From NCBI GenBank assembly GCA_041738395.1, contig JBGSPW010000227.1:45320-77319 (forward strand): 32,000 bases of DNA, written 5' to 3'. Under the pieces are notes generated by a model. The model searched no databases. It was not told the origin of the DNA and was given only the letters and a program-made list of their open reading frames with translations. Origin of the DNA: Thermoflexales bacterium (GTDB lineage Bacteria; Chloroflexota; Anaerolineae; Fen-1058). The translations under genes were made by a program, and so were the position numbers. Within the stretch, counting starts at the first letter, position 1. Each line of letters begins with the position of its first letter. Shown piece after piece: positions 4,829-32,000 of the stretch.

Positions 4829-6403
4829 ATGCCTCTCTCGATCGAAAACACCATCGGCCAAAAATTGATGCTCGGTTTTCATGGCACGCAGCCACCCGTC
4901 GAAGTGCTGGAGAGGTTGAAGCGCCATCACGTCGGCGGCGCGACCCTGTTTCGCTCGATGAACCTGGAGCATCCCGCGCAGATCCGTGAATTGACAGACG
5001 CGCTGCAACGCGCCGCGCGCGAAGCAGGCCAACCCCCTTTGTTACTCGGAGTCGATCAAGAAGGCGGCACGTTGATGGCGGTGCCGGGCACATCACGCTT
5101 TCCGGGCAATCTGGCGCTCGGCGCAGCCCGATCGACTGAGCTGGCCTATCGGACCGGCCTCGCCATCGGGCGCGAGTTGTCCGCCCTGGGCCTCAACGTC
5201 AACTATGCGCCCGTGTGCGATGTCAACAACAATCCGCACAACCCTGTTGTGGGGCCGCGCTCCTTCGGAAGTGATCCACAGATGGTGGCGCAATTGGCCG
5301 CCGCCGTGATCGATGGACTGCAGGCGGCCGGCGTGGCAGCCACCGCCAAGCACTTCCCCGGCCACGGCGATGTCTCCAGCGATCCGCATTTTTCGATGGC
5401 CGCGATCGTGCCGCACGACGAAAAGCGCCTGCGTTCGATCGAGTTTGTGCCGTTCAAAGCGGCAATCCGATCGGGCGTGAAGCTGATCATGACGGCGCAC
5501 ATCGCCCTGCCCGAATTCGATCGCGGCTACTACCGACCGGCCACGCTCTCACCCCGCATCCTGACCGAGCTGCTGCGTGACGAGTGGAAGTATCCGGGCG
5601 TGATCATCAGCGATGCGCTGGATATGCACGCCATTCTGCAAGGGACGTTGAATCCGTTGGAAGCGGTCTGCGGCGCGGCCGCCGGATTGGATTTGCTGCT
5701 GATGACGGCCTTCGTCGATCAGGCGGCGATCTATGAAGGATTGTGCCACGCTGCGCAGCGCGGCCTGCTGCCACACGCCGCGCTCATGGCTTCGGTGCAG
5801 CGCATTCTGGCGTTGAAAGAGTGGGTGAGCCAACAAACGCCACCAGCGTTGGAGGTAGTGGGCTGCGCGGAACATGCCGCGCTGGCCACTGAAATTGCAG
5901 AAAGATCAATTACGCGGGTACGTGATACAGCGCAGTTGCTGCCGCTGCGTTTGAACAGCGACGATCGGATTGTGGTAATTGTGCCGCAGCCCCAAGACCT
6001 GACGCCCGCCGATACGTCATCGTACGATAAGCCGGCGCTGGCTGAAGTGATTCGCGCGCAGCATGGCAACGTCGATGAAATGGTGATCCCGATCGATCCC
6101 GGTGAAGCCGAAGTCGCCGCGTTAGCCGATCGGGGGGCCGGGGCTGCGCTGGTCATTGCCGGCACGATCAACGCGAATCAACATCCCGGTCAAGCCGCCT
6201 TGATCAACACGTTGATCGATCGCGGCCAACCGATCATCGCGATCGCGTTACGCATGCCGTATGATGTGAGCGCTTATCCGCGTGTGCCGACGTATGTGTG
6301 CGCGTATAGCTTGCAGCGGCCTTCGCTGCAAGCCGTGGCGCAAACCCTGTGGGGTAAACTGCCCTTCCGAGGTCAGTTGCCCGTGGAGATTCCCGCAGCA
6401 TGA
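4829..6403 (+). CDS. nagZ: Glycoside hydrolase family 3 beta-N-acetylhexosaminidase (NagZ-like), two-domain form
   Basis: 524 aa. GH3 N-terminal domain motifs are present: GVDQEGG, NYAPVCDV and KHFPGHGDVSSDPH. An additional C-terminal alpha/beta domain follows. Confidence 0.8.
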   Translation: MPLSIENTIGQKLMLGFHGTQPPVEVLERLKRHHVGGATLFRSMNLEHPAQIRELTDALQRAAREAGQPPLLLGVDQEGGTLMAVPGTSRFPGNLALGAARSTELAYRTGLAIGRELSALGLNVNYAPVCDVNNNPHNPVVGPRSFGSDPQMVAQLAAAVIDGLQAAGVAATAKHFPGHGDVSSDPHFSMAAIVPHDEKRLRSIEFVPFKAAIRSGVKLIMTAHIALPEFDRGYYRPATLSPRILTELLRDEWKYPGVIISDALDMHAILQGTLNPLEAVCGAAAGLDLLLMTAFVDQAAIYEGLCHAAQRGLLPHAALMASVQRILALKEWVSQQTPPALEVVGCAEHAALATEIAERSITRVRDTAQLLPLRLNSDDRIVVIVPQPQDLTPADTSSYDKPALAEVIRAQHGNVDEMVIPIDPGEAEVAALADRGAGAALVIAGTINANQHPGQAALINTLIDRGQPIIAIALRMPYDVSAYPRVPTYVCAYSLQRPSLQAVAQTLWGKLPFRGQLPVEIPAA

Positions 6404-16805: not shown

Positions 16806-16817
16806 ACACAGGAGATG

Positions 16818-16947
16818 GTTACTGCTCAGCCGTCATGCCCCGCGAAGCGTGCTTCTGTCGGGCATCCAAATTCGCAGCTAACACGGCCTCTGGATTCCCG
16901 CCAGAAGCACGCGGGAATGACAGTGCTGCCGTGGACTGAGCAGTAAC
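16818..16947. mobile_element. MITE-like family B element, copy 2, with perfect 12-bp terminal inverted repeats and 8-bp target-site duplication
   Basis: The TIRs are gttactgctcag (16818-16829) and ctgagcagtaac (16936-16947). They are flanked by identical AGGAGATG at 16810-16817 and 16948-16955. The interior is an inverted pair of about 32-nt hairpin units: gtcatgccccgcgaagcgtgcttctgtcgggcatcc and ggattcccgccagaagcacgcgggaatgac. The element has no coding capacity. Confidence 0.65.
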
Positions 16948-16958
16948 AGGAGATGAGC

Positions 16959-17438
16959 ATGTCAGCCAACTCACGCACTTGGATTTTGATCGGCCTCATC
17001 GGGTTGATCTTGATCGGCGCCGCACTGATCATATTGCCCTTGCTCACTCCATCGGCAGCGGTACCGTCGACCAGCGTGCCCACCGTTCCACCGCAGCAGC
17101 TCGATCAAGGCCCGGCCCCCGAAGTGCCGCGCGTCAGTGTCGGTGAGGCGTATGCGGCTTACACCGCGAAACAGGCCGTCTTCGTCGATGTCCGCAGTGT
17201 GGGTCAGTATGAGGCCAGTCACGTGACCGGTGCGCTGCCCATGCCGTTGGGCGAATTGGAAAGCTATCTGAGCGAACTCGACAAGGCGCAGTGGATCATC
17301 ACGTACTGCACCTGACCAGCTGAGGAAAGCAGCGCCCGTGCGGCGCAGATTATGCTGGCGAACGGCTTCCAGAAGGTGACACCGCTCAAGGGTGGTTTTC
17401 AAGCGTGGATCGACGCGGGGTATCCGGTAGAGCTGTGA
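16959..17438 (+). CDS. Membrane-anchored single-domain rhodanese (sulfurtransferase) interrupted by an in-frame TGA at 17313-17315 (candidate Sec codon, or a pseudogene)
   Basis: The track ORF 16953..17315 ends at ..WIITYCT*. The same frame continues for 40 codons (PAEESSARAAQIMLANGFQKVTPLKGGFQAWIDAGYPVEL) to a TGA at 17436-17438, which completes the rhodanese fold. I prefer the ATG at 16959, with AGGAG 6 nt upstream. The N-terminus is a TM anchor followed by a Pro-rich linker. Confidence 0.6.
17316..17358 (+). promoter_or_regulatory. Stem-loop immediately 3' of the in-frame TGA (SECIS-compatible geometry, unproven)
   Basis: The lower stem pairs CCAGC (17316-17320) with GCTGG (17354-17358). 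The apical stem pairs GCGCC (17332-17336) with GGCGC (17342-17346), closing a 5-nt loop CGTGC. The apical loop begins 21 nt after the TGA. Confidence 0.25.
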
Positions 17439-17441
17439 ACA

Positions 17442-17501
17442 AGAAACCGGGTTTCTCCAGTCCCAACGTCGTGACGTGTCAGGAGCAGAGAAACCCGGTT
17501 T

Positions 17502-17503
<2 letters not shown>
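17442..17503. repeat. Family C paired palindrome between convergent genes; probable bidirectional terminator
   Basis: agaaaccgggtttctcc at 17442-17458 and gagaaacccggtttct at 17488-17503. It sits between the rhodanese stop (17438) and the GH1 stop (17502-17504). Confidence 0.55.
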
Positions 17504-19923: not shown

Positions 19924-20062
19924 ATACTCACTTTCCGATCGGCCAAAAGGGGGTTTTCAGCGTGCCTGAATTCACGTTCAATTCAAGTGCGGCACTGTAC
20001 ATAAGTATTCGCTGCGCTGGAATACGCCAAAAACTCACATTCAGCGAGCGGAAAATGAGTAT
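19924..20062. repeat. Imperfect 18-bp inverted repeats bracketing a low-GC 139-bp spacer at the core/island junction
   Basis: atactcactttccgatcg (19924-19941) matches the reverse complement of cgagcggaaaatgagtat (20045-20062) at 16/18. The right arm abuts and overlaps the stop codon (20062-20064) of the RCK-RyR gene. Confidence 0.4.
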
Positions 20063-21834
20063 CAAGGAACTCGTCCGCTAACACCATTCTCTTGCGGAAT
20101 GATCTGGTAACCGGCTCGACTCAGAAAAGATGGAATGCCGCGGACTGCCGTACGGTTTTTCTCTCTTTCGGCCTCGGGCAGCGCATCCCAGTCCACCAGG
20201 TGGGGATGGGTTCGAGCGGCTAGATCTTTCGGGCCAAGGGCGTAGCGCCAACCGTCGTTCTGCCTGTCCTGGCACCACAGCTGGTGTTCCAGCTGGGCCA
20301 TGCGCTCCAGCTCAGCCAGGGAGAATTCAAGCGCCGGTGAATCCCAACCGATCAGCGGGACCAGAGTATATCCGCCCTCTTTCAAGACCTGATTGATATG
20401 GTCTACCCATTGGTAATTCGCTTTCCGATACTGTTCGTCCAGCTGTGCCCAGGGTTGCATTGAAGGATCAGACGGCACAGCAGTGCCCGTTTTCATCTGC
20501 TGCTGAACATATTCTTCGTGAGCCGCCCGGGCGAGGACATCGTGGGTGGTATCGTTCAGCAGGTCGGGCGTACAGGTGTGATCGAGATACCCGAAAGCGT
20601 ACAGATTCTGGTAGGTTCCCCGGTCATTTTTTCGGTCCCCCAATAGCCGCGCCAGCCCGCTTTGTTCGGCCATGCGGATCACGATCGGAATGCCGCTGTT
20701 TGGCCGCTGGCGCAACAGAACCAATCCGGCATGTAAGCCAAGTGAGTCATTGTCCACACAGATATAAACGTGATCGATCCCCCGTTTGCCTGGAGCCGGG
20801 GAGAGATATGCGCCACTTTCAAACTCGGGAGAATGGATTTCTATCTGGTGCGGAATCAACTCACAGGCCTGTGCCAACTGTGGGTAGCGAATATAGAGCG
20901 ACTCGACCTTTCGCAGCGCGTAACGATCGATGATCGTCACTTGTAAACGACTGGACTTATCCGGTCGTTGGTCCCACCAACTCCGCGCCGTGTGTAACAC
21001 CAGACTTTCGCCCATGCGTCCGAGTCCCACCACCAACAGATGGGGAACAACCCCGGTCTGGACCAACTCATCGCGCCAGGCCGGATGTTCCTGCAACAAC
21101 CGACGCGCCCCACGCTCAAACACATTGAACAGCTCCAGCCGGAAAGGTCCCCCTTCCAAGGTCGCTTCCTGCTCACGCAGTAGCGCACACAGCTGAGGAT
21201 CAGAGACGTGAATCAAACACGGCAACGGCTCAACCCGGCGGTCTCGCACTATCGCCTGGACACTGAGCGCAATTTCGATGTTAAGGCCATCGTTGTCGCA
21301 CACCGCAAACAGGCCGCGCGCACGCTTGACGCCAGCCCGCAACAACAAGGCGGAGGTGGTCGCATCGCCCGGCAGGACAAACAGCCCTAGCGCGTGACAG
21401 GCAGCGATCCAACTGTTCTTCTCATCGCGCTCGATCACCACGACCCTGGCGCCTTTCTTCCGAAACTGCTGGGCCAGCAGAAAGCCCTTGCGGCTGAGAC
21501 CGCAGATGATGATGTGCCCGCGCAGGCGGCGCAGCCGGGCCGCGTCGATCTGCTGGCGAAACAAATCCAGCAGGACTTTCACCACCGCCAGGCCGGTCAG
21601 GAAGGGAACGGCGAAGCGGGCCAGGTTCAGTTCCAGCGGCAGGGGCGGCGTGACCGCGCCAGAATTCATCGGGATCAATTGCAGGGTCAGATAAAACGAA
21701 TCGGCCAGCGAATAGGGCAGCTGATTCCAGGTGGCATACCGGGTAAAGCCCACCAGCCCGGCGGTCAGGGCCAGCATCCAGAGAATCCCTAGGCCGAGCC
21801 ATTGGTATTTTTGCCAGATCTTTAACTTGTGCAT
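20062..21834 (-). CDS. Membrane protein: 2-TM channel-like N-terminus + tandem RCK/TrkA-N Rossmann domains + two C-terminal RyR (ryanodine-receptor) domains
   Basis: 590 aa. The TM helices are WLGLGILWMLALTAGLVGF and FAVPFLTGLAVVKVLLDLF, with a re-entrant-like segment between them (SFYLTLQLIPMNSG, no TVGYG). The Rossmann motifs are HIIICGLSRKGFLLAQQF..VVVIERDE and HLLVVGLGRMGESL. RyR-type repeats occupy the last 160 aa (about 20065-20544): LARAAHEEYV...GGYTLV and AQLEHQLWCQDRQNDGWRYALGPKDLAARTHPHLVDWDALPEAEREKNRTAVRGIPSFLSRAGYQI. Confidence 0.75.
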   Translation of the reverse strand: MHKLKIWQKYQWLGLGILWMLALTAGLVGFTRYATWNQLPYSLADSFYLTLQLIPMNSGAVTPPLPLELNLARFAVPFLTGLAVVKVLLDLFRQQIDAARLRRLRGHIIICGLSRKGFLLAQQFRKKGARVVVIERDEKNSWIAACHALGLFVLPGDATTSALLLRAGVKRARGLFAVCDNDGLNIEIALSVQAIVRDRRVEPLPCLIHVSDPQLCALLREQEATLEGGPFRLELFNVFERGARRLLQEHPAWRDELVQTGVVPHLLVVGLGRMGESLVLHTARSWWDQRPDKSSRLQVTIIDRYALRKVESLYIRYPQLAQACELIPHQIEIHSPEFESGAYLSPAPGKRGIDHVYICVDNDSLGLHAGLVLLRQRPNSGIPIVIRMAEQSGLARLLGDRKNDRGTYQNLYAFGYLDHTCTPDLLNDTTHDVLARAAHEEYVQQQMKTGTAVPSDPSMQPWAQLDEQYRKANYQWVDHINQVLKEGGYTLVPLIGWDSPALEFSLAELERMAQLEHQLWCQDRQNDGWRYALGPKDLAARTHPHLVDWDALPEAEREKNRTAVRGIPSFLSRAGYQIIPQENGVSGRVP

Positions 21835-21889
21835 GCGACGATTTTAGACTCCTTGCCAGGCGGCGTTCAGCCGTTAGTGTGAGAATAGC

Positions 21890-22180
21890 ATGATATACGC
21901 CGCTGTCGAGCGAGAAATGCTATCCTCCGCGCGTGAATTGGAATTCGTGCATGTGCGGATTTCCCCGCACCGGCCCTGTACCAATGGCATCGTCGAGCGC
22001 CTGGTCCGCACCGTGAAAGAGTGGCTCGAAACCCACTCGTGGAGCAGCCCCGAAGACTTGCAGGCGTTGCTGGCCGAGTTCATCACGGACTATAACGACC
22101 GCCCACATCAAGGGGCCGAACTGGACGGATTGTCTCCCAACGAGCTCGCCCGGCGGCTCGCTGGCTGTTCAACATGTTAG
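21890..22180 (+). pseudogene. Truncated DDE (rve-type, IS481/IS3-like) transposase remnant, C-terminal part only
   Basis: The 96-aa ORF contains ..HRPCTNGIVERLVRTVKEWL..FITDYNDRPHQG.., which is the last catalytic-Glu region of the integrase core. The upstream D,D part is missing because the fragment begins 55 nt from the RCK-RyR gene start. I did not identify terminal inverted repeats. Confidence 0.7.
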
Positions 22181-22709
22181 CGAACAATACAATAATCGAT
22201 CAGTTGTTGCAGCACCCACTGCTGGATGGCCGCAAATTATCCCCAGGCAACAGTGGTAGCACCCTCATTGTGTTGGGTGTCGGTCTTATCGCTACGTTGC
22301 TCGTCGTATTGGCTTATGGTCTCAGCTTGCTGTACACACGCCTTTTGCCGTTCGACATCGGCCAGGCGACACTGTTCGCACTGAGCGCCATCATCGCGGT
22401 GACGGCGCTCGTTTGGCGCTGCGCTCACCTTCCACGTCGGTCTGGATGAATCTGGCCGTGCCACGATCGAGCTCGTTGACCAGGCGTGCTATAGCGTCCT
22501 GTCCGGCACGTTGATTGATCTCGGCCATCACGGCGCGCACCAATCGCTTATTTGTGCTTCAGGGTCTCAAGAAGTCGCTGGGCGGTTGTCTCTCATTCCG
22601 ATCAAGAACGAGTCGTGCTTAAGTGTCGCGGGCATATCTGTTGCCTCTTTAGCATAGTTTAAGATCTCTCAAGGTCCGTTTGCCCTTGTGCTTTGTCGGC
22701 CTCTGCTCA

Positions 22710-25700
22710 CTACTTGCTTTCTGGCAATGCTTCGCACGTTTTCCGATACGGCTCATTCCCAAGATACTGCTTCCATTCCGCTCGCGTCAGGTTGCGATTG
22801 GCAATGCGGCATGCGCTTGCTAGCCACGATCTAATATCAAGATCCCACAAGATGACGGCATAAAAATTGGCTGAGGAAGCCAGCCATCTGCCATCAGGGC
22901 TAAAGGCAATGCTGCCTACACCAACCTGACCAAAGAGTGGCGTGGTGAACTGAGCAGGAGATTTGTGATCAGAGATATCCCATAGCGCAATGGCCCCATA
23001 GTCATCCCCACGCGAAGCCAAAGTCTTGCCGTCAGGGCTGAGTGCAATGGGAGCACTGCCGGCAAGCGCCACGCCGAGTTGGACCGGCAACGTCGGTGTA
23101 GAAATATCGTATAAAAGAATGTCGTTGCCGGCTACCAAAATCAATGTCTTGCCGTCGGGGCTCAACAGGATATCAACCAGCGGTCCCTTCAATCCAGATA
23201 GCGACGCATTGAGATACGGGGGATCGGAAATCTTCCACAATTGAACTTTGCTTTGGTTACAGACCATGCCGAAGTCAGCGCACCCACCCACGACTAATAA
23301 CTTACCATCAGGACCAAAGGCGACCTTTGATAATCCGAGTGTATTACTGGAAATCGGCGCACCCAGTTGGATGGGTGATTCAGGGTCGGAAACATCCCAT
23401 AGAACTAGATTGCTAAATGTGGCGAAGTTCATTGTATTCCACCACACCAGTGTCCTCCCGTCCGGACTGAATACAACTTCTGGCCAATCGCCACCGTTGG
23501 GTATCGTGACAGAAAATGGCGTACCAAGTTGAATCGGAGTTCGAGGATTAGAAACATCCCATAGGACTATGACAGCCACTTTTCCGCGTCTGCTCCATGC
23601 CAATATTTTTCTATTGGGGTCTAGAACAATGCTGTCACCGTGTTCAACCCTGAGAGGTTCTTTAGAAAGCAATATATCAAGCTGGACAGGAGTCTGGGAA
23701 TTAGAGACATCCCGGAGGACGATGGCGTTGTCTTTGACGCTCAATGCCAATATCTCGCCATTGGAGCCAAAAGTTATCTTGGAGTCAGAAGGGAGTTCGC
23801 CAACGAGAACGGGCAAGCGAAGGACAGAAACGTCCCACAGGTTTATATGGGCCGTGCTGCCTGACACCAATGTCTTGCCGTCGGGACTGAAAGCAAGATC
23901 TCCTACACGCTCTTCGGGACCGAAAACATGTACAACAGACGAAATAGACAAAGGTGACCGGTAATCGGAAATGTCCAACAAAGCAACGGTGTAGTTGCCG
24001 CCGCCTAAGGCTAGCATCTTCCGACCAGGACTGAAAGCCGCGCCTCCAAAGCCTGAAGGGCCGGAAATTGTTGCACCAAGTCGGGCAGGCGATTTGGGAT
24101 TGGAAATGTTCCACTTGGCAAGAGTGCCGTCACCCCCCACAAGTAATGTCTTACCATCAGTAGCAAAGGCAACAGTTACCACAGGAAATGTATGGGAGAG
24201 TGGGCTGCCGATCGGGATAGGCAAACCGGGGTCGGAGGTATCCCACAGGATAACCGATTTGTCACTACTTCCAGAGGCCAGAATTTTTCCATTGGGACTA
24301 AAGGCAACGCTCGTCACAGCAGCTGCATGTCCAGAAAGGGTGGTGCCGAGAAGAGCTGGTAACACAGGACGAGAAACGTCCCATAAACGAATTTCACCTG
24401 AGCGAGGTTCGTTAGGGCTACCTCCTTCATCAGCTTTTCCTCCGCTGCCAGAGGCCAGCAGCTTGCCATCCGGGCTGAAAGCAACACTTTCTACTGGAGC
24501 AGAATGACCGGTGAGTGGCGCGCCGAGAAGAACCGGCGAAGAAAGATTAGAGACATCCCACAGATAGGTTTGGCCTAGCTTAGGGAAACGAGAGAGATCG
24601 AGTTTCACATTACCGCCTGCGGCCAACAATCTTCCGTCAGGGCTGAAGGCAACATCATAAACCGGTCCAGGAGGGCCGGAAAGTGGTTCACCCAAAGGCT
24701 GGCGACTGACAATATCCCACAACTGAACCTCTCCTTGAGAACAATAGTATTTAACAAAATTTACTGCACACCCTCCTGAAGCCAATGTTCTACCATCGGG
24801 GCTAAAAACAAGGCTATAGACACCGGCTTTATGGCCTGCGAGTGGTGGGGCAAGCTGAACGGGCAACGATGGATTGGAAATATCCCATAGATAGATCTTG
24901 CCCTGGGCACAGCCACCCGCTTGATCATCAAACTCGCTGCAAATGCCCATTGCCAGCATCTTTTCATCGGGACTGAAAGCGAGACCGGACACCTCAAGTC
25001 GCTGCGACGTTCGCTCCGACGCGCTGGATGCGGGAGAGCGCAGAAAGGTTACAAGACGTGGGCTATGCTGTAAGGCGGCCAGCAAACTGCTGCGCGCCTC
25101 GATGGTATCCATCATTCGGTAGGCTTCCGCGCCCAACAGCAAAGCCAAGTCAAGTTCTTTGTCCAAATGCGAAATCGCTTGCACTGATAGTTGGCGAGAG
25201 AGCGCAGTTTTGGCTTGTCGCTGGGCTTCATCGCGTTGTTCCACAGCCCGAGTGCTGGCGGCTTGAGCTGTGGAGGCATTTTGATTTGCGCGAATGGCAT
25301 TCTGGTTGGATTGCAATCCAAAGAAAACCGCAATCATAGCGGCGAGAAGCGCCGCTGCGCCAGCAGCGGTGATAATTCGGTTGCGCGTGCGCAGACGCCT
25401 GGCCGACTGCTGTTGCTCCTGGAGTTTTTCGGCGGCTTCACGGTCAGCTTCCTGCCGGCTGGTCAGCACATACTGACGCTGTAATGGCGTGGGTTGGGGA
25501 GTTCTTTCCACATCGATTCCGGCCAAGCGCTGCTCCGCCTCCAGCAAATCGGTGCCACGCAAAAGAAAACTGGCGTCTCGTGTCTTTTTCTCCCACTCTA
25601 CTGCACGCATCTGCAGCCGGGTATGCACTTTAGTCCATTCCAAGTCGGTCTGAATGGCGACGAGCAGGGTGTCAAACGCCTTCTGATAATCATCCTGCTG

Positions 25701-26036
25701 CTCGCGGAAGAAAATCCAATTGAGCCGGGTGACTGTTTCGGGCGCGGCGCGCGGTTCCACTTCCCGCGGCACAATGGGGATGAGGCGCTTGCCATTCTGT
25801 GCAGCGTGGGCAATCTCTTTGCTGCAAATTTCCGAGCTAATCGAATCGGGGCTGACGACGAACACAAAGGTATTGGCCTGCTCGATGGCCGTATAGACTT
25901 CGGCCAGCCAGTCGGCGCTGGGGGGAATATCCTGCCAGTCAATCCAGGTGTCCAGTTGGCGCTCTTGGAGCAACTGGTGCAAAACGCGGGCAAAGGCAAT
26001 ATCTTTACGAGAGTAGGAGATAAAAACGTCGCTCAT
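22710..26036 (-). CDS. TIR domain / single TM helix / WD40 beta-propeller repeat protein (about 15 blades)
   Basis: 1108 aa. The N-terminal TIR is MSDVFISYSRKD..TFVFVVSPDSISSEICSKEIAHA (Glu74 codon at 25815-25817). A conserved helical module follows (HTRLQMRAVEWEKKTRDASFLLRG..). A basic stretch RRLRTRNR precedes the TM segment IITAAGAAALLAAMIAVFFGL (about 25311-25376). Repeated AFSPDGK/R.LASG..(I/V).LWD blades follow. I found no P-loop. Confidence 0.9.
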   Translation of the reverse strand: MSDVFISYSRKDIAFARVLHQLLQERQLDTWIDWQDIPPSADWLAEVYTAIEQANTFVFVVSPDSISSEICSKEIAHAAQNGKRLIPIVPREVEPRAAPETVTRLNWIFFREQQDDYQKAFDTLLVAIQTDLEWTKVHTRLQMRAVEWEKKTRDASFLLRGTDLLEAEQRLAGIDVERTPQPTPLQRQYVLTSRQEADREAAEKLQEQQQSARRLRTRNRIITAAGAAALLAAMIAVFFGLQSNQNAIRANQNASTAQAASTRAVEQRDEAQRQAKTALSRQLSVQAISHLDKELDLALLLGAEAYRMMDTIEARSSLLAALQHSPRLVTFLRSPASSASERTSQRLEVSGLAFSPDEKMLAMGICSEFDDQAGGCAQGKIYLWDISNPSLPVQLAPPLAGHKAGVYSLVFSPDGRTLASGGCAVNFVKYYCSQGEVQLWDIVSRQPLGEPLSGPPGPVYDVAFSPDGRLLAAGGNVKLDLSRFPKLGQTYLWDVSNLSSPVLLGAPLTGHSAPVESVAFSPDGKLLASGSGGKADEGGSPNEPRSGEIRLWDVSRPVLPALLGTTLSGHAAAVTSVAFSPNGKILASGSSDKSVILWDTSDPGLPIPIGSPLSHTFPVVTVAFATDGKTLLVGGDGTLAKWNISNPKSPARLGATISGPSGFGGAAFSPGRKMLALGGGNYTVALLDISDYRSPLSISSVVHVFGPEERVGDLAFSPDGKTLVSGSTAHINLWDVSVLRLPVLVGELPSDSKITFGSNGEILALSVKDNAIVLRDVSNSQTPVQLDILLSKEPLRVEHGDSIVLDPNRKILAWSRRGKVAVIVLWDVSNPRTPIQLGTPFSVTIPNGGDWPEVVFSPDGRTLVWWNTMNFATFSNLVLWDVSDPESPIQLGAPISSNTLGLSKVAFGPDGKLLVVGGCADFGMVCNQSKVQLWKISDPPYLNASLSGLKGPLVDILLSPDGKTLILVAGNDILLYDISTPTLPVQLGVALAGSAPIALSPDGKTLASRGDDYGAIALWDISDHKSPAQFTTPLFGQVGVGSIAFSPDGRWLASSANFYAVILWDLDIRSWLASACRIANRNLTRAEWKQYLGNEPYRKTCEALPESK

Positions 26037-26154
26037 ATGGTGATTTTCTCGCTATTTTTGCGGCGAATGGCTTATTTCTGGAGCGCAATGCGCTCCAATG
26101 TCGAAATGACGAACATACGGAAAATGCGGGATGTTTGGGCCAGAACAACCTCTC

Positions 26155-29100
26155 CTATTGAGCCAGCTGGCACGTGGCGTGGTAAACTGCCTGATCGAAA
26201 TAGAGGGACCATTCTTCCTGGGTGAAATTGCGGTTGGCAATCTGACAGACGCGGGTCAGCCAATCTTGCGGGTCCAGGGACCACACAGTCATTTTGCTAA
26301 TCTCAGAGGTATACAGAAACCGGCTGTCGGGGCTGAAGCCCAAGACTGTGACGCTGGAGTCTGGGTTGCGGATGGGCTGGCCGACAGGTTGCCGTTTTTG
26401 AACGTCCCACAAGGTAATCAGACCGACCCCGCAGCCTGAGCCGTTGCCACTATCGCAGCCGACGCTGACCGAATAGCGCCCATCCGGGCTTCTGAGCCAT
26501 GCAACGGTCAGAGTGTTCATCAGCGGATCGGGCTGCCCGCTCTCGATATCCCACCAGATGTCTTGCTGTTTGAGAGACAGGTAGGTGCTAATGCCGATCT
26601 TTTTCCCGTCGGGGCTGAATTCCAGCAGTTTGACACTCCCGTTCGTGGAGCCATCAAACGGCTTGCCGATCGTTTTGCCGGTCTCCATATCGTACATTTC
26701 GATCCGATAAGTCTGGCAGCTTTGAACTCCCTTGATGCATCCGGCGGCAGCCAGGGTTTTCCCGTCCGGACTGAAGGCCAGCGTGATGAACCCCGGGTCG
26801 AGAGTCATCGATATCTGGTGGACAACCTGGCCGATGGCTGGATCCCAGACCAGGAAAGTCCCATGTGGTCCGTCACTGACCATCCAACGGTCATCCGGGC
26901 TGAACTTCAGATTCAGTGCCCACCCGTCGATCATAACCGGCGCGCCAATCGACTGTCGGGTGGCAACGTCCAGGAAATGCATCCGGGTGGATTGGACGTT
27001 GCCGATTAGCTCTGTGTAGACCAGAACCTTACCGGAGTGGCTGAGGAAAATACGGGAAATATCGACATCCGGTGCGGTCATGAAAGGCTGCCCGGCCGGT
27101 TTGTTTTTCTCGACATCCCAAACAACGATATCTTTCGTGGAAGCAGCGACAACAATTGGTTCTTGCGGGGCAGCGGGGTCAAAGCCAACCTGCCAGTAGC
27201 TCCACGGCGAGGGATCGCTGTTGTTGAAAACTTTCGCCACCGGCTGCCAGGAAAACAGGTTCCACAGGTAGATCTGACTTTCTTTGCAGTCCATATAGAG
27301 CCCGGCTACAGCGCATGAGCTGCTGGCTAAGAAACGGCCATCCGGGCTGATGGCCAGCGCATTGACGAATCGGGTTGTTTGGTAAGGCTCCAGAGTGAAG
27401 GCGTCCCTGGAATTCGTAGCGGAGTGAATCGCAAGTGGAGATCCGAAACTAAGGCTGGCCAAAATCTGGTCGCTACCCGACCGGCTGAAGAGCAGGCTGT
27501 CAATCTCTGATTTCTGCGTGTAGGAGGCTGCCTGCTTCCAGTTTGCCACGTTAATGATGTGGACGATCCCCGCCGCCTCCCCAGCAGCCAGCAGCTCGCC
27601 ATCGGCGCTCACGTCGACCGAGACGATCGCGCTGGTTGTGCCTTCAATCGGATGCGCCTGCATGCTTCCATCCGGCAGGTTCCAGGTTTTTACTTCTCCC
27701 TTCTGACAAAAATCCATTTTGGATTTACCAGTTCCTTGGGTTCGCAGGCCGGCACAGTCGCCGGCGTACAGACGGTCACTCTGCGGACTGAAGGCCAGGT
27801 TATGCATCTGCGTTCCCACCCCTTTAAGTGCCACCCCAGGTGGGTTAGCGATGCTCAAATCCCAAAGAACGATTCCTCCCGTGTCGCACAACCCGCCAGG
27901 CATGGAAAACCCATGGCACCCACCACTGGCCATGTATTTCCCGTCCGGGCTGATGGCCACCATTCCGCTGCTGTTGGCGAAAGCCGGCAGAGGAATGGGG
28001 GCCGGCTGGCCTCCTGCAGATAGATCGAAGCGATAAATCCGATCTCCGGCGATGGCAGCAAACAGAGCCGACCCATCCGGGGTAAAAGCCAACCCGGTCG
28101 GCCGGCCTCCGCCGGCAGCCAGGACCCGGCCCATCTGCCCGCTGGCAAAGTCGTAGAAGACGATCTTATTTTGCAGGCAGGCATCATGCTTCTCATCGCG
28201 CTGGGCGCATCCCGCCACCGCAATCCACTTTCCATCCGGCGAAAAGGCCAGTGCAGTGATTTGCTCCGGATAGCGGTCGATGCGTGCCAGTTGAGGACTC
28301 TGCTCCAGTGCCAGGAGCAAACTACTGCGAGCGTGATAGGTATCGGCAGCCAGGTACGATTCGGCAGCCAGGAGCATCGCCAGGTCAAGATGATGAGTCA
28401 ACTGGGTCTGGGACTGGGTCGACAGCTGGCCAGACAGGGCTATCTTCGCCTGGCGTTGAGCCTCGTTGCGCTGTTCCACGGCCAGTGTGCTGGCGGCCTC
28501 GGCGGTAGCCCGCTGGTTGATCGCATTGGCCTCGGCCGTGGCGCGAGTGAATGATTCGGCCACGGCTGTCGAGCGGGCATAGGACTCGGCCAGGGCATTG
28601 GCCTGTGCCAGATTGCTTTGAACCAGGGCGACAATTGCTAGCGCCACAGCAATCACAAATCCGATCGTCACCGCACCGAGCGTGATACGCTGACGCCGGT
28701 CGGCATCCCGACGGCCGGCTAGCAGGTACTGCTTTTGCAGAGTGGTGGGCTGGGGTTCTTTTTGCCCGGTGGCCTGCGCCAGCCAAGTCTCGGCGTCGCG
28801 CAATTCCCGCCCACGCAGCAGAATGCTGGAGTCACCCTGTTTATTTTCCCATTCCAGGGCGCGCACCTGGAGGCGGGTGTGGACTTTCACCCAGGCCAGG
28901 TCGGTCTGAATGGCAGTCAGCAGTTTATCGAAGGGCTGCTGGAAGTCGGATTCTTGCGGTGAAACGTTCTCGCGTGCGGGGAAGAAGATCCAGTTTAGGG
29001 CTGCAATATCGGGCAGCAGTTCTTCAGACTTGATCTCCGGGTGGATAACAATAGGGACTAGCCGCTTGTGGTTATCGATGGCGTGCTGCACCTCTTTGCT

Positions 29101-29313
29101 GCACACTTCTGAGTTCTTGGAATTGTGGCTGACGATATATACAAAAGTATCTGCCGCTTCGATGGCGTGGTAAATCTCGCTGAGCCAATCAGCTGAAGGG
29201 GGGATGTCCTCCCAGTCGATCCAGGTTTCAAGGTTTCTAGCTTTAAGGGCATCGACCAGGATGTGAGCAAAGGCCACATCTTTGCGGGAGTAGGAGATAA
29301 AAACGTCGCTCAT
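26155..29313 (-). CDS. TIR domain / single TM helix / divergent WD40-like beta-propeller repeat protein (about 14 blades), paralog of 22710..26036
   Basis: 1052 aa. The TIR is MSDVFISYSRKDVAFAHIL..NSEVCSKEVQHA (Glu74 codon at 29092-29094). It is about 60/90 identical to the downstream paralog over the first 90 aa by hand alignment. The TM segment is ITLGAVTIGFVIAVALAIVALV (about 28618-28686). The start overlaps the stop of the upstream gene (ATGA at 29310-29313). Confidence 0.9.
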   Translation of the reverse strand: MSDVFISYSRKDVAFAHILVDALKARNLETWIDWEDIPPSADWLSEIYHAIEAADTFVYIVSHNSKNSEVCSKEVQHAIDNHKRLVPIVIHPEIKSEELLPDIAALNWIFFPARENVSPQESDFQQPFDKLLTAIQTDLAWVKVHTRLQVRALEWENKQGDSSILLRGRELRDAETWLAQATGQKEPQPTTLQKQYLLAGRRDADRRQRITLGAVTIGFVIAVALAIVALVQSNLAQANALAESYARSTAVAESFTRATAEANAINQRATAEAASTLAVEQRNEAQRQAKIALSGQLSTQSQTQLTHHLDLAMLLAAESYLAADTYHARSSLLLALEQSPQLARIDRYPEQITALAFSPDGKWIAVAGCAQRDEKHDACLQNKIVFYDFASGQMGRVLAAGGGRPTGLAFTPDGSALFAAIAGDRIYRFDLSAGGQPAPIPLPAFANSSGMVAISPDGKYMASGGCHGFSMPGGLCDTGGIVLWDLSIANPPGVALKGVGTQMHNLAFSPQSDRLYAGDCAGLRTQGTGKSKMDFCQKGEVKTWNLPDGSMQAHPIEGTTSAIVSVDVSADGELLAAGEAAGIVHIINVANWKQAASYTQKSEIDSLLFSRSGSDQILASLSFGSPLAIHSATNSRDAFTLEPYQTTRFVNALAISPDGRFLASSSCAVAGLYMDCKESQIYLWNLFSWQPVAKVFNNSDPSPWSYWQVGFDPAAPQEPIVVAASTKDIVVWDVEKNKPAGQPFMTAPDVDISRIFLSHSGKVLVYTELIGNVQSTRMHFLDVATRQSIGAPVMIDGWALNLKFSPDDRWMVSDGPHGTFLVWDPAIGQVVHQISMTLDPGFITLAFSPDGKTLAAAGCIKGVQSCQTYRIEMYDMETGKTIGKPFDGSTNGSVKLLEFSPDGKKIGISTYLSLKQQDIWWDIESGQPDPLMNTLTVAWLRSPDGRYSVSVGCDSGNGSGCGVGLITLWDVQKRQPVGQPIRNPDSSVTVLGFSPDSRFLYTSEISKMTVWSLDPQDWLTRVCQIANRNFTQEEWSLYFDQAVYHATCQLAQ

Positions 29314-29903
29314 AGGGTAACTTTCTCGCTATTTTGGCGGCGTGGTTTTTCTGCCGGAAAATTCTCGTAGGTCACACTGGCCTGGATTGGCGCCGATGCA
29401 CTCGCCTCCACCACGCTGGGTTGATAGTTTGGGGCATAGACCCAGGCGATCGGCAAGCCCCGCTGACGCGCCTCTAAAACTATTTGCCCGGTGCCGCCCT
29501 GGCCTCTTGGCGGCTGGCCATCCCAAAGCGCAACGAGCACATCCACCTGATCGAGCATGTAACGCCCGGCGAATTCATAGGCCGCAACGCGCGTTGAACT
29601 GACTGGAAGTTCGATTACCCTGTCAGCGCGCGTCAATAGATCCAGGAATTCCAGCCTTGAATCTTTAGAGAAATCGGTCAAATACTCTTCTTTCTTCAAG
29701 GGGAGCGGCACGACCAGGCGGGTCTCGATCACTTCGAAGGCGCGTTGAACAACCAGTCGGTCCGCGCCGTCCGCCAACGAACTGTAGAGGCGGAATGGCC
29801 CGGCGAACCTCGCCTGGATTTTTTCCAGCACATTATCGACCTGGCGAATAAGCCGGTTCAGGTCGTATAAAACGCGGTGGCCTGTCACGCCGATGTTTGT
29901 CAT
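29310..29903 (-). CDS. Stand-alone SLOG-superfamily (DprA/LOG/YpsA-like Rossmannoid) protein
   Basis: 197 aa with GGTGG upstream of the ATG at 29901-29903. SLOG-like motifs are IGVTGHR at the N-terminus, SLADGADRLVVQ (the GxD glycine-rich loop), and VLVALWDGQPPRGQGGTGQIVLEARQRGLPIAWV (comparable to LOG PGGxGT and DUF2493/YspA patterns). That it is coding is secure; the family call rests on motifs only. Confidence 0.6.
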   Translation of the reverse strand: MTNIGVTGHRVLYDLNRLIRQVDNVLEKIQARFAGPFRLYSSLADGADRLVVQRAFEVIETRLVVPLPLKKEEYLTDFSKDSRLEFLDLLTRADRVIELPVSSTRVAAYEFAGRYMLDQVDVLVALWDGQPPRGQGGTGQIVLEARQRGLPIAWVYAPNYQPSVVEASASAPIQASVTYENFPAEKPRRQNSEKVTL

Positions 29904-29970
29904 CCGCCCACCTTACAAGATTTTTTCAGAAGTGCGATTGTATTGGCGCGTATTCGGTCGTCGGTTAGAA

Positions 29971-32000
29971 TTAGCCTTTGTCAGATCTCGCAATGGCGTA
30001 CCCCGCCCTGGCCAGGATCTCCGGGATGCCGCGCACCAGGTCACGGTCCTTCACCTTCTCTTCTTCAGGCAGCTGCTCCCAGGAGACAAGACATGTGTGT
30101 ATCTTTTTGGCCGCATCAGTTTCGGAGGCATAGACCCAGCCGTCATCGAGTTTGGATTGCATCCAACGTTCGTGTTCCGCCTTCGCCAGCGTCTCCATGG
30201 GTTCACCGGGGAAGTTAAAGGGTGGTTCGTTGCTGCGCGCCGGGATCATGATATAGCCGGCCGCCGCCAGTTTGGCCGGGATATCACGCACGTATAGCCG
30301 GTTCTGCTCCTTCAGGAAGTCGGGCAGCTCCGCATACGAGACGAGGGCCATGTGGGTCTTGAGCGCCTCGTCGGTCTTGGAGCCATACTGGTAGCCGCGT
30401 TTTTTCAGCCCCTCGCAAAAAATCGTGTGATTAGCCTCGGCCAGATCTTCGAGCATCTGCCCTTCCAATTCAACTTGCTGGACCAGGGAGAGGAAGCGTT
30501 TGCCGTCCACGTGCAGGTCGAGCTGCGATTCGGACGGCAGGCAGGAGCGCTCAAAGGCGGTCTTGCCGGTTAACTGGCTCATGGCGAACAGCGACTCGAT
30601 CGAACGCGCGCCATGCCTGTATTGCCCAATCTTCAGCAGGGCGCGCAGCACCCCGCGGTCGATGTTGAGCCATTCCTGCCCGCCGCGTTTCTCGAACAGT
30701 TGAGGCGTGCCGCGCTTCAGGCACGATCGTAACAGGATCGCCCGGCGGATGATAAAGTACGGGTCTTCGCTGTTTCCCTTGACCGGGTTGGGCCCCAGGA
30801 CGTTGATGTAACCCTTGAGGCGGCTGACGAAATCGGGCCCTTTGGCCGACTTGAAGTTCTTGTCGATCCCCTTGTCGAATTCCGCCATGCTGCTACTGGT
30901 CCCGCCGGCGAAGACGAAAATCGAGCGACCGATCGGGTGGTTGATCTGGCCTTCCTGGAATTTACCATCCTGCATGGGAGCCAGGAAGTAGCGCAACCAG
31001 CCGAGCGGCATTTCGCCCAGAGAGGTGTCGAACTCATCCCAGAATACCAGCGGGATCTTGCCACTCAGGCCGACGTCGCGCACTTGGTGGAGGGCAGACA
31101 ATAAACCATCGACGGAATCGAACTGGGACAGGTTGAAAGTGATCGGTTCGATCTGGCCGGGCAGGAGGGATTTGGCCATCTCGGTGACACCGAAGGACTT
31201 GCCTGACCCGGGCGTGCCGAACACCGCGATCGAAAGCGGACGCGTCACCTGCTTTTGTCCGGCATACTCGGCGACCAGGTTGCGGATGCTGCGGTAGCTT
31301 TCGATCTCCTGGCGGTCGACCGTCAGCAGGTTGCCGAACTGTCCCCAGGGCACTCCTTGCAGAGCCACTTCCGGTCCTTCCAAGACGACCTGCATGGCGA
31401 CCTGATCCAGCCCTCCCTTAAATTTGTCTTGCAGGATCGTCCAGAAGCCTTCCGTCAGCGGTTTCTCGGCCGGTTCCCCGGTTTGATGGATGAAGCGCAT
31501 CGGATCCTGGATTGGGGCGACTGTGAACTGTTTCGTCGGCTGGGCCAGAGCGGCCGCGACCTTGACGATGGGGAAAACGAGTTTGGCCTGCGAGGCAGGC
31601 GTGCCCCGTTCACCGTAGCCCTCCAAGTGCAGAATTCGCATGGCCGCCAGGCCAGACTGGATCCCAGACTGGATATCGGGCTGATCGGGCGAGACCATCA
31701 GCTGGCGGGCGATTCCGGCCGTCAGGCAGGTGGTGTAGCCGATCATCCTGCCGGGATAGTCCTTCTCCCACATGTGCTCGATGCCTTTCGGATCGAAGAA
31801 TAGAGAACACTGGAAGGTGGGCTGGTCTTTTCCTTCCTGCCGCGACAGGAGGATCGCCCCGGCAGGCCCAAAGGAAATGATCACGTGGGCGCAGTGCGAA
31901 AGCGAGTTGATACACGGGTTATGCACTAGCTCCCAGAAGACGTCCTGAGCGGTGCGTTCCCAGGAGAGTTCCCGGCTGATCTGGACTTCGCTCAAGCGCA
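29971..32000 (-). CDS. AAA+ ATPase with two C-terminal RyR domains and an N-terminal domain of unknown (possibly degenerate PfkB-like) fold; 5' end probably beyond the window
   Basis: The stop is TAA at 29971-29973. Walker A is GTPGSGKS (31195-31218, checked against the DNA). Walker B is IPLVFWDEFD and sensor-1-like is IFVFAGGTS. The two RyR repeats are in the last 161 aa (about 29974-30456): AEANHTIFCEGLKKRGYQYGSKTDEALKTHMALVSYAELPDFLKEQNRLYVRDIPAKLAAAGYIMI and AKAEHERWMQSKLDDGWVYASETDAAKKIHTCLVSWEQLPEEEKVKDRDLVRGIPEILARAGYAIA. The only in-window start candidate is TTG at 31993-31995, and the frame stays open to the edge. Confidence 0.8.
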   Translation of the reverse strand, partial: RLSEVQISRELSWERTAQDVFWELVHNPCINSLSHCAHVIISFGPAGAILLSRQEGKDQPTFQCSLFFDPKGIEHMWEKDYPGRMIGYTTCLTAGIARQLMVSPDQPDIQSGIQSGLAAMRILHLEGYGERGTPASQAKLVFPIVKVAAALAQPTKQFTVAPIQDPMRFIHQTGEPAEKPLTEGFWTILQDKFKGGLDQVAMQVVLEGPEVALQGVPWGQFGNLLTVDRQEIESYRSIRNLVAEYAGQKQVTRPLSIAVFGTPGSGKSFGVTEMAKSLLPGQIEPITFNLSQFDSVDGLLSALHQVRDVGLSGKIPLVFWDEFDTSLGEMPLGWLRYFLAPMQDGKFQEGQINHPIGRSIFVFAGGTSSSMAEFDKGIDKNFKSAKGPDFVSRLKGYINVLGPNPVKGNSEDPYFIIRRAILLRSCLKRGTPQLFEKRGGQEWLNIDRGVLRALLKIGQYRHGARSIESLFAMSQLTGKTAFERSCLPSESQLDLHVDGKRFLSLVQQVELEGQMLEDLAEANHTIFCEGLKKRGYQYGSKTDEALKTHMALVSYAELPDFLKEQNRLYVRDIPAKLAAAGYIMIPARSNEPPFNFPGEPMETLAKAEHERWMQSKLDDGWVYASETDAAKKIHTCLVSWEQLPEEEKVKDRDLVRGIPEILARAGYAIARSDKG

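Follow-up and report, generated by a model that had tools for sequence, protein, structure and literature searches.

The 32,000-nucleotide (nt) stretch of Thermoflexales bacterium contig JBGSPW010000227.1 analysed here, hereafter the window, carries a small rhodanese gene whose reading frame contains one internal TGA. The gene has a LytR-LysM gene on one side and a convergent GH1 beta-glucosidase gene on the other, an arrangement also seen in close relatives. Translation of 16953–17438 on the + strand shows a single in-frame TGA at 17313–17315 and no frameshift; the frame reads ...AQWIITYCT up to this codon and continues as PAEESSARAAQIMLANGFQKVTPLKGGFQAWIDAGYPVEL, which runs to a second TGA at 17436–17438. 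With X in place of the internal stop, Pfam Rhodanese (PF00581) covers residues 64–154 without a break at the TGA, scoring 52.3 bits against a gathering cut-off of 22.2. This bears out a preliminary description of the locus, made from its letters alone, which had noted an in-frame TGA inside a rhodanese, no frameshift and about 40 further codons finishing the domain. We propose that the internal TGA specifies selenocysteine (Sec, U). The gene has the following features.

16959–17438, + strand: predicted complete selenoprotein open reading frame (ORF) of 159 residues including Sec119, starting at ATG 16959, as in database protein P0001, and ending at the stop TGA 17436–17438.
17313–17315, + strand: inferred Sec codon TGA (Sec119), with TGA at 79 of 81 homologous sites, Cys in YCxCP homologues and TGA in the DNA behind database forms that show W.
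17307–17309, + strand: TGC encoding Cys117, which opens the C-T-U motif; it does not vary among Cys forms, 4 homologues have TGA instead, and hhalign pairs it with the canonical catalytic Cys.
16947–16951, + strand: Shine-Dalgarno sequence AGGAG, read from the sequence, 7 nt 5′ of ATG 16959 and within the downstream copy of a 10-nt duplication, ACAGGAGATG.
16980–17045, + strand: N-terminal hydrophobic segment WILIGLIGLILIGAALIILPLL, residues 8–29, with Arg6 before it; a putative signal anchor.

An alternative start is possible at the in-frame ATG at 16953, and the relative L141 has the same AGGAGATGAGCATG context around the Shine-Dalgarno sequence. Six of the 18 large ORFs in the window, as well as the rhodanese gene itself, terminate in TGA, which rules out a global reassignment of this codon. 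With TGA serving as a normal stop in the rest of the window, the recoding would be local and the genetic code unchanged. The source is apparently a metagenome-assembled contig, where a sequencing or assembly error at the TGA might be suspected. However, an independent Logan assembly (L001, SRR28170473) is identical in sequence, TGA included, and the same codon recurs in dozens of unrelated assemblies, leaving a negligible probability for an error of this kind.

A protein homologue search covering 5.8 billion proteins yielded more than 100 homologues with 38–78% identity, nearly all of them 113–120 residues long and ending exactly at ...WIITYCT. A few full-length database entries carry W at the site; the DNA there is TGA, and these entries are thus code-4-style gene calls. 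Scanning GTDB (one genome per species) identified at least 537 relatives, almost all in metagenome-assembled genomes (MAGs) of Chloroflexota/Anaerolineae. Among 81 motif matches, taken from the best 80 genome loci of these 537 relatives, four Logan loci and the window, the codon at the site is TGA in 79 and CGA in one; the remaining match is a false pattern match. The 79 TGA sites come from about 75 species-level genomes, and the relatives show 37% to 100% protein identity (median 50%) to the window protein. The CGA (Arg) codon is found in P0024/L004 at 6185–6187 (Logan SRR12953253), where the sequence AGCGCCCGTGCGGCG of the hairpin described below is retained; it arose by recent substitution or else is a read error.

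The codons downstream of the TGA retain the signature of a coding sequence. In an alignment of 73 distinct sequences, mean column identities at codon positions 1, 2 and 3 are 0.67, 0.77 and 0.35 for codons +12 to +38 downstream of the TGA, and 0.62, 0.72 and 0.43 for the 20 codons that precede it. The same codon-position pattern after as before the TGA argues that the downstream part is translated and under purifying selection. These results bear on the possibility that the gene was killed by a recent nonsense mutation, TGC or TGT to TGA, with a mobile element upstream as part of the same decay. Such a change needs one substitution, there is indeed a mobile element in the leader, and the GenBank orthologues are annotated as 118-residue proteins; yet the TGA is shared across the species-level genomes and the wide identity range given above, and the codons beyond it remain under purifying selection. 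The mobile element is:

16818–16947, no strand assigned: insertion of 130 nt resembling a miniature inverted-repeat transposable element (MITE), between the LytR-LysM gene and the rhodanese gene, in the rhodanese leader and not part of the selenoprotein.

The MITE is present as a single copy in the window and ends in 12-nt perfect terminal inverted repeats (GTTACTGCTCAG/CTGAGCAGTAAC), and has a 22-nt inverted repeat in its interior. On either side is a 10-nt direct repeat, ACAGGAGATG, at 16808–16817 and 16946–16955. The empty site in L141 reads ...GCAGGAGATGAGCATG..., and the intergenic gap at this place is 10–16 nt in relatives. Insertion occurred exactly at the Shine-Dalgarno sequence and ATG of the rhodanese gene, and the target duplication recreates both, while the old ATG now starts a 43-codon ORF across the MITE. 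Since the duplication restores the Shine-Dalgarno sequence and ATG, the MITE is no argument for decay, contrary to the earlier suggestion that an insertion in the ribosome-binding region might fit a decaying gene; close relatives without the MITE carry the TGA too. The conservation of the TGA and the coding signal downstream of it effectively refute a pseudogene, to which we assign very little probability.

If the TGA is a Sec codon, a selenocysteine insertion sequence (SECIS) is expected just downstream, and two paired elements are found there, the second of them in the minimum free energy (MFE) fold.

17332–17346, + strand: SECIS-like apical hairpin, with stem GCGCC/GGCGC (17332–17336 with 17342–17346) and loop CGUGC (17337–17341), spanning the codons for Ser-Ala-Arg-Ala-Ala.
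17316–17358, + strand: outer stem CCAGC/GCTGG (17316–17320 with 17354–17358), seen in the MFE fold of the UGA plus 45 nt of the window sequence only.

From the UGA it is 16 nt to the start of the 5-bp apical stem and 21 nt to the loop. RNAalifold, applied to an alignment of 73 sequences, returned one helix only, pairing columns 23–27 with 33–37, which correspond to window positions 17332–17336 and 17342–17346. Standard pairs occupy 97.8% of stem cells in these sequences, and compensatory changes from C-G to U-A occur at pair 24:36 (10 sequences) and pair 27:33 (4 sequences). None of 500 column shuffles reached the observed covariation score, and sliding the 3′ arm by 1–3 columns as a control reduced pairing to 19–59%. 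Identity at third codon positions rises to 0.68–0.92 in codons +6 to +10, compared with about 0.3 elsewhere, which points to a constraint on synonymous sites over the hairpin. The second loop position is G in all 73 sequences, the loops including CGUGC (49), GGUGC (11) and CGUGU (7). The preliminary description had drawn both stems. Its apical stem, with the loop CGUGC 21 nt after the UGA, stands where it was placed and is supported by covariation, whereas its lower stem appears in the MFE fold of the window but is absent from the RNAalifold consensus across the 73 homologues.

The published model of the bacterial SECIS (bSECIS) specifies an apical loop of 3–9 nt, a stem of 4–16 bp, a G in the first two loop positions, a distance of 16–37 nt from UGA to loop and an MFE of −7.5 kcal/mol or lower (PMC13188914). 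The window hairpin falls within each of these constraints, with a 5-nt loop, a 5-bp stem, G at position 2, a spacing of 21 nt and an MFE of −15.7 kcal/mol for the UGA plus 45 nt; the same measure is −7.5 kcal/mol or lower in 69 of the 73 sequences. An Rfam scan of the window gave no RNA family.

The nearest counterparts with a sense codon at the site are rhodaneses with two cysteines. In an exhaustive profile search, full-length single-domain relatives read Y-C-[T/A/K/D]-C-P-[A/H/Y]-E, with both Cys invariant in the alignment, and a metagenome scan provided 47 distinct Cys-form DNA sequences from 56 metagenome loci. The TGA column matches the second Cys of these forms, so the motif of the window protein reads C-x-U; at this position Ser, Tyr or Pro occurs in a few relatives of full length. 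An alignment of orthologues, which had been advised at the outset as a check, therefore gives TGA (79 of 81) or Cys in relatives. The Cys-form Y-C-x-C-P-[AH]-E rhodaneses (P0267, P0247, P0263, L085-L140) share with the Sec forms the same domain, the extended acidic loop C-x-C-P-A-E-E-S-S-A, a motif near the C-terminus (G-G-x-x-A-W...G-Y-P) and in many cases an N-terminal anchor. They differ in having TGC or TGT in place of TGA and in lacking the hairpin: in the 47 Cys forms only 51.9% of cells in the same columns are paired, and all five pairs are possible in just one.

Several points weigh against selenocysteine. The hairpin is short, at 5 bp, and its fold is no more stable than those of dinucleotide shuffles (z = 0.17). 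Stability alone thus proves nothing, and the support for the hairpin is comparative, not thermodynamic. The protein scores 73.5 bits (X at the site) or 80.4 bits (C) on NF041203, the NCBIfam model for rhodanese selenoproteins considered below, under the curated cut-off of 115. No selA, selB, selD or tRNA-Sec was detected in the 32-kb window, nor in homologous loci totalling about 1.5 Mb: Pfam revealed no sel genes among the 18 window ORFs, ARAGORN found no tRNA in the window, and the 8 tRNAs that it called in 144 sequences (143 loci plus the window) do not include tRNA-Sec. Finally, selenium incorporation is a prediction from sequence for every member of the family, and the chemistry and topology proposed below are deduced likewise. 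A tblastn search of 1.49 Mb of loci with an approximate Escherichia coli SelD query gave one match, L049 5108–6226 (− strand). We rejected it as SelD, as it is a generic HypE/ThiL/SelD-like AIR-synthase relative with 79.5 bits against a cut-off of 125, below every NCBIfam cut-off.

The lack of Sec machinery among the window and homologous loci searched, and the small size of the hairpin, would also suit a recoding of UGA that does not involve Sec, either hairpin-stimulated near-cognate read-through (inserting Trp, Cys, Arg or Gly) or a tuned ratio of truncated to full-length product. The CGA codon of L004 beside an intact hairpin, and the few full-length relatives with Ser, Tyr or Pro, could be read in the same way. 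However, the nearest homologues that do not have TGA carry an invariant Cys within C-x-C, the classical Sec/Cys signature, and the hairpin agrees with all constraints on a bacterial SECIS, including the G-U of the apical loop. The presence of TGA at the upstream Cys codon as well in four relatives suits an exchange of Cys and Sec, not leaky termination. Sec use is moreover reported in Chloroflexi, in the form of Sec-containing formate dehydrogenases in single-cell genomes (PMC5736913), and NCBIfam holds a Roseiflexus-named selenoprotein family. We regard recoding of either kind, independent of Sec, as unlikely.

The preference for a selenocysteine codon over a nonsense mutation, voiced in the preliminary description, is upheld by the TGA at 79 of 81 sites, the coding periodicity downstream, the aligned Cys and a covarying hairpin confined to the TGA forms. 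We estimate at roughly 90% the probability that the TGA at 17313–17315 truly encodes selenocysteine, followed by a SECIS that looks functional, in what is predicted to be a small membrane-anchored rhodanese.

Variants of the motif occur within the family. Four independent Anaerolineae assemblies read Y-TGA-T-TGA (L036 2595–2603, L040 10313–10321, L064 474–482 and L075 10226–10234), with the downstream hairpin retained in all four; these genes are candidate double-selenocysteine (U-x-U) rhodaneses. L072 (10001–10663) encodes two rhodanese domains in tandem, each with IITYCT-TGA and a hairpin of its own. In L082 (ORF at ~9708), a C-A-U rhodanese is fused to a C-terminal DsbA-like CPYC domain, whose best match is NF041057, the 'Rcas_1661 family thioredoxin-like (seleno)lipoprotein' (165 bits against a cut-off of 190); the fusion hints at extracytoplasmic thiol-disulfide chemistry. 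Another two-Cys loop, Y-C-x4-C (YCSSDQC, YCDGVGC, YCSNNDC), is seen in some domains of the multi-rhodanese proteins P0123, P0133, P0138 and P0153 and, judged by its sequence, is another class of extended-loop rhodanese.

Which residue of the motif occupies the canonical catalytic position depends on the alignment. A phmmer comparison with PDB 6mxv pairs the catalytic Cys with the Sec position and makes 'CT' an insertion. When the Sec family and the Cys family were each compared with canonical Y-C-R-S-G-x-R-S domains by profile-profile alignment in hhalign, Y-C fell on Y-C and 'U-P' (or 'C-P') became an insertion of two residues. An AlphaFold2 (AF2) model of the homologue P0014, analysed with DSSP, has the strand WIITY, the loop C-T-U-P-S-E and a helix from the next Glu, such that a six-residue loop opens at the upstream Cys; P0014 has W at the Sec position, and the loop geometry is therefore only indicative. 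The claim that the TGA sits exactly at the catalytic cysteine thus agrees with the phmmer alignment to 6mxv but not with hhalign and the AF2 model, which place the upstream Cys there. Under either alignment the loop is acidic and exceeds the classical one by two residues, with Cys and Sec two residues apart.

The same AF2 model, with a mean predicted local distance difference test score (pLDDT) of 83.8, confirms through this homologue the alpha/beta rhodanese fold, as modelled, and its top 50 Foldseek matches in the PDB are all rhodanese domains. It has a helix at residues 7–27, and lipoprotein-type lipoboxes replace the anchor in about 9 of 79 homologues. From its sequence, the N-terminal signal anchor probably puts the rhodanese domain outside the cytoplasm. 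The product would accordingly be a 159-residue, N-terminally membrane-anchored and probably extracytoplasmic single-domain rhodanese with the loop Cys117-Thr-Sec119-Pro-Ala-Glu-Glu-Ser.

In the mechanism that we envisage, the hairpin at 17332–17346, with the G-U of its apical loop 21 nt after the UGA, would act as a bacterial SECIS and recruit SelB-GTP-Sec-tRNA(Sec) to the approaching ribosome. Sec would be inserted, termination avoided and translation continued to the real stop at 17436–17438. The most likely chemistry is that of a C-x-U selenol/thiol redox pair with Sec as the attacking nucleophile, which may take sulfane sulfur or work as a thiol/selenol oxidoreductase, the neighbouring Cys resolving it through a selenenylsulfide. 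The acidic loop, two residues longer than in classical thiosulfate sulfurtransferases, makes thiosulfate or another anion an improbable substrate. Such a protein may serve an extracytoplasmic selenol/thiol redox or sulfur-handling role.

Genomic neighbourhoods are poorly conserved across 74 loci, and no strong conserved operon partner emerged among them. Recurring neighbours include heavy-metal P-type ATPase (13), MoeA (9), peptidase M3 (9), ArsR (8) and DsbA-like thioredoxin (8), which are weak hints to function. In the window, two near-identical palindromes, AGAAACCGGGTTTCT (17442–17456) and AGAAACCCGGTTTCT (17489–17503), separate the rhodanese gene from the convergent GH1 gene. The first is also found in L141, and the second overlaps the stop codon of GH1; the pair may represent a repeat element or terminators that act in both directions. 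Further away, 20062–31995 on the − strand holds a cluster of large signalling or defence-like genes:

20062–21834, − strand: TrkA_N-RyR protein.
22710–26036, − strand: TIR-WD40 protein, 1108 residues.
26155–29313, − strand: TIR-WD40 protein, 1052 residues.
29971–31995, − strand: RyR-domain protein.

The reading of the TGA as a Sec codon corrects the annotation from a 118-residue fragment to a complete selenoprotein of 159 residues. Public annotation systematically truncates the orthologues at the Sec codon: that of CFX2/Anaerolineales, recorded on 442 contigs, is given as a protein of 118 residues under the name 'rhodanese-like domain-containing protein' or 'SseA'. The position of the gene outside the curated NF041203 model fits the 118-residue GenBank record in Chloroflexi bacterium CFX2, and since the model does not reach this branch, hundreds of Chloroflexota MAGs are probably mis-annotated alike. 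The source organism and much of the Anaerolineae are likely to be Sec users, a point relevant to trace-element ecology in wastewater, sediment and groundwater. The natural series C-x-C, C-x-U and U-x-U, in an apparently exported rhodanese with an acidic extended loop, offers a handle on what Sec contributes outside the cytoplasm.

Compared by model features with the SECIS of the E. coli fdhF type, the window element shares a hairpin that is part of the coding sequence and lies directly 3′ of the UGA, a G-U in a small apical loop and a spacing within 16–37 nt. It differs in that its conserved part is limited to a 5-bp stem and a 5-nt loop, with neither a conserved lower helix nor a bulged U.

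Rhodanese selenoproteins with a CxU motif are catalogued as NCBIfam NF041203 (example TKB26178.1), and their first prediction is credited to Zhang & Gladyshev 2005, using bSECISearch (PMC13188914, PMC9312934). The window protein is thus not new in kind, CxU rhodaneses having been predicted since 2005; it belongs to a large, mis-annotated Chloroflexota branch of them. NF041203 'rhodanese_LYCAU', an equivalog model, is the top NCBIfam match of the window protein (profile positions 17–124 of 126), and seven relatives score 75–102 bits on it, all under the cut-off. The two groups share a single rhodanese domain, a Sec two residues past the conserved Cys that follows the Tyr of the beta-strand (Y-C-x-U), and a bacterial SECIS directly downstream of the UGA. 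They differ in that the window branch has the motif WIITYCTU-P-x-E-E-S-S-A-R-A-A, not LYCAU, comes mostly from Anaerolineae/Chloroflexota MAGs and has an N-terminal membrane anchor. By domain and motif, the window gene is a member of the known CxU kind; by the curated model, it belongs to an unrecognised branch.

GlpE, PspE and YgaP (PDB 1gmx, 2jtq and 5hbo) share the modelled fold, with a Foldseek probability of 1.00 and target-normalised TM-scores of 0.78–0.85. YgaP is membrane-anchored and PspE extracytoplasmic, like the location deduced for the window protein. These proteins have a six-residue basic loop, C-R-S-G-x-R, whereas the window protein has an eight-residue acidic loop, C-T-U-P-A-E-E-S, with a predicted Sec. 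We rejected assignment to the classical thiosulfate sulfurtransferases (GlpE/PspE type), given the longer, acidic loop in place of a six-residue C-X4-[R/T/S] loop with basic residues, and scores below both equivalog cut-offs (49.6 against 102 bits for GlpE and 27.7 against 102 for PspE). At odds somewhat short of even, we suggest that the WIITYCTU proteins form a distinct and very large Anaerolineae clade of exported or membrane-anchored Cys-x-Sec rhodaneses outside NF041203, systematically truncated in public annotation and including the U-x-U, tandem and DsbA-fused variants, which may carry out an undescribed extracytoplasmic, selenium-dependent redox, sulfur- or metal-handling reaction instead of the transfer of sulfur from thiosulfate.

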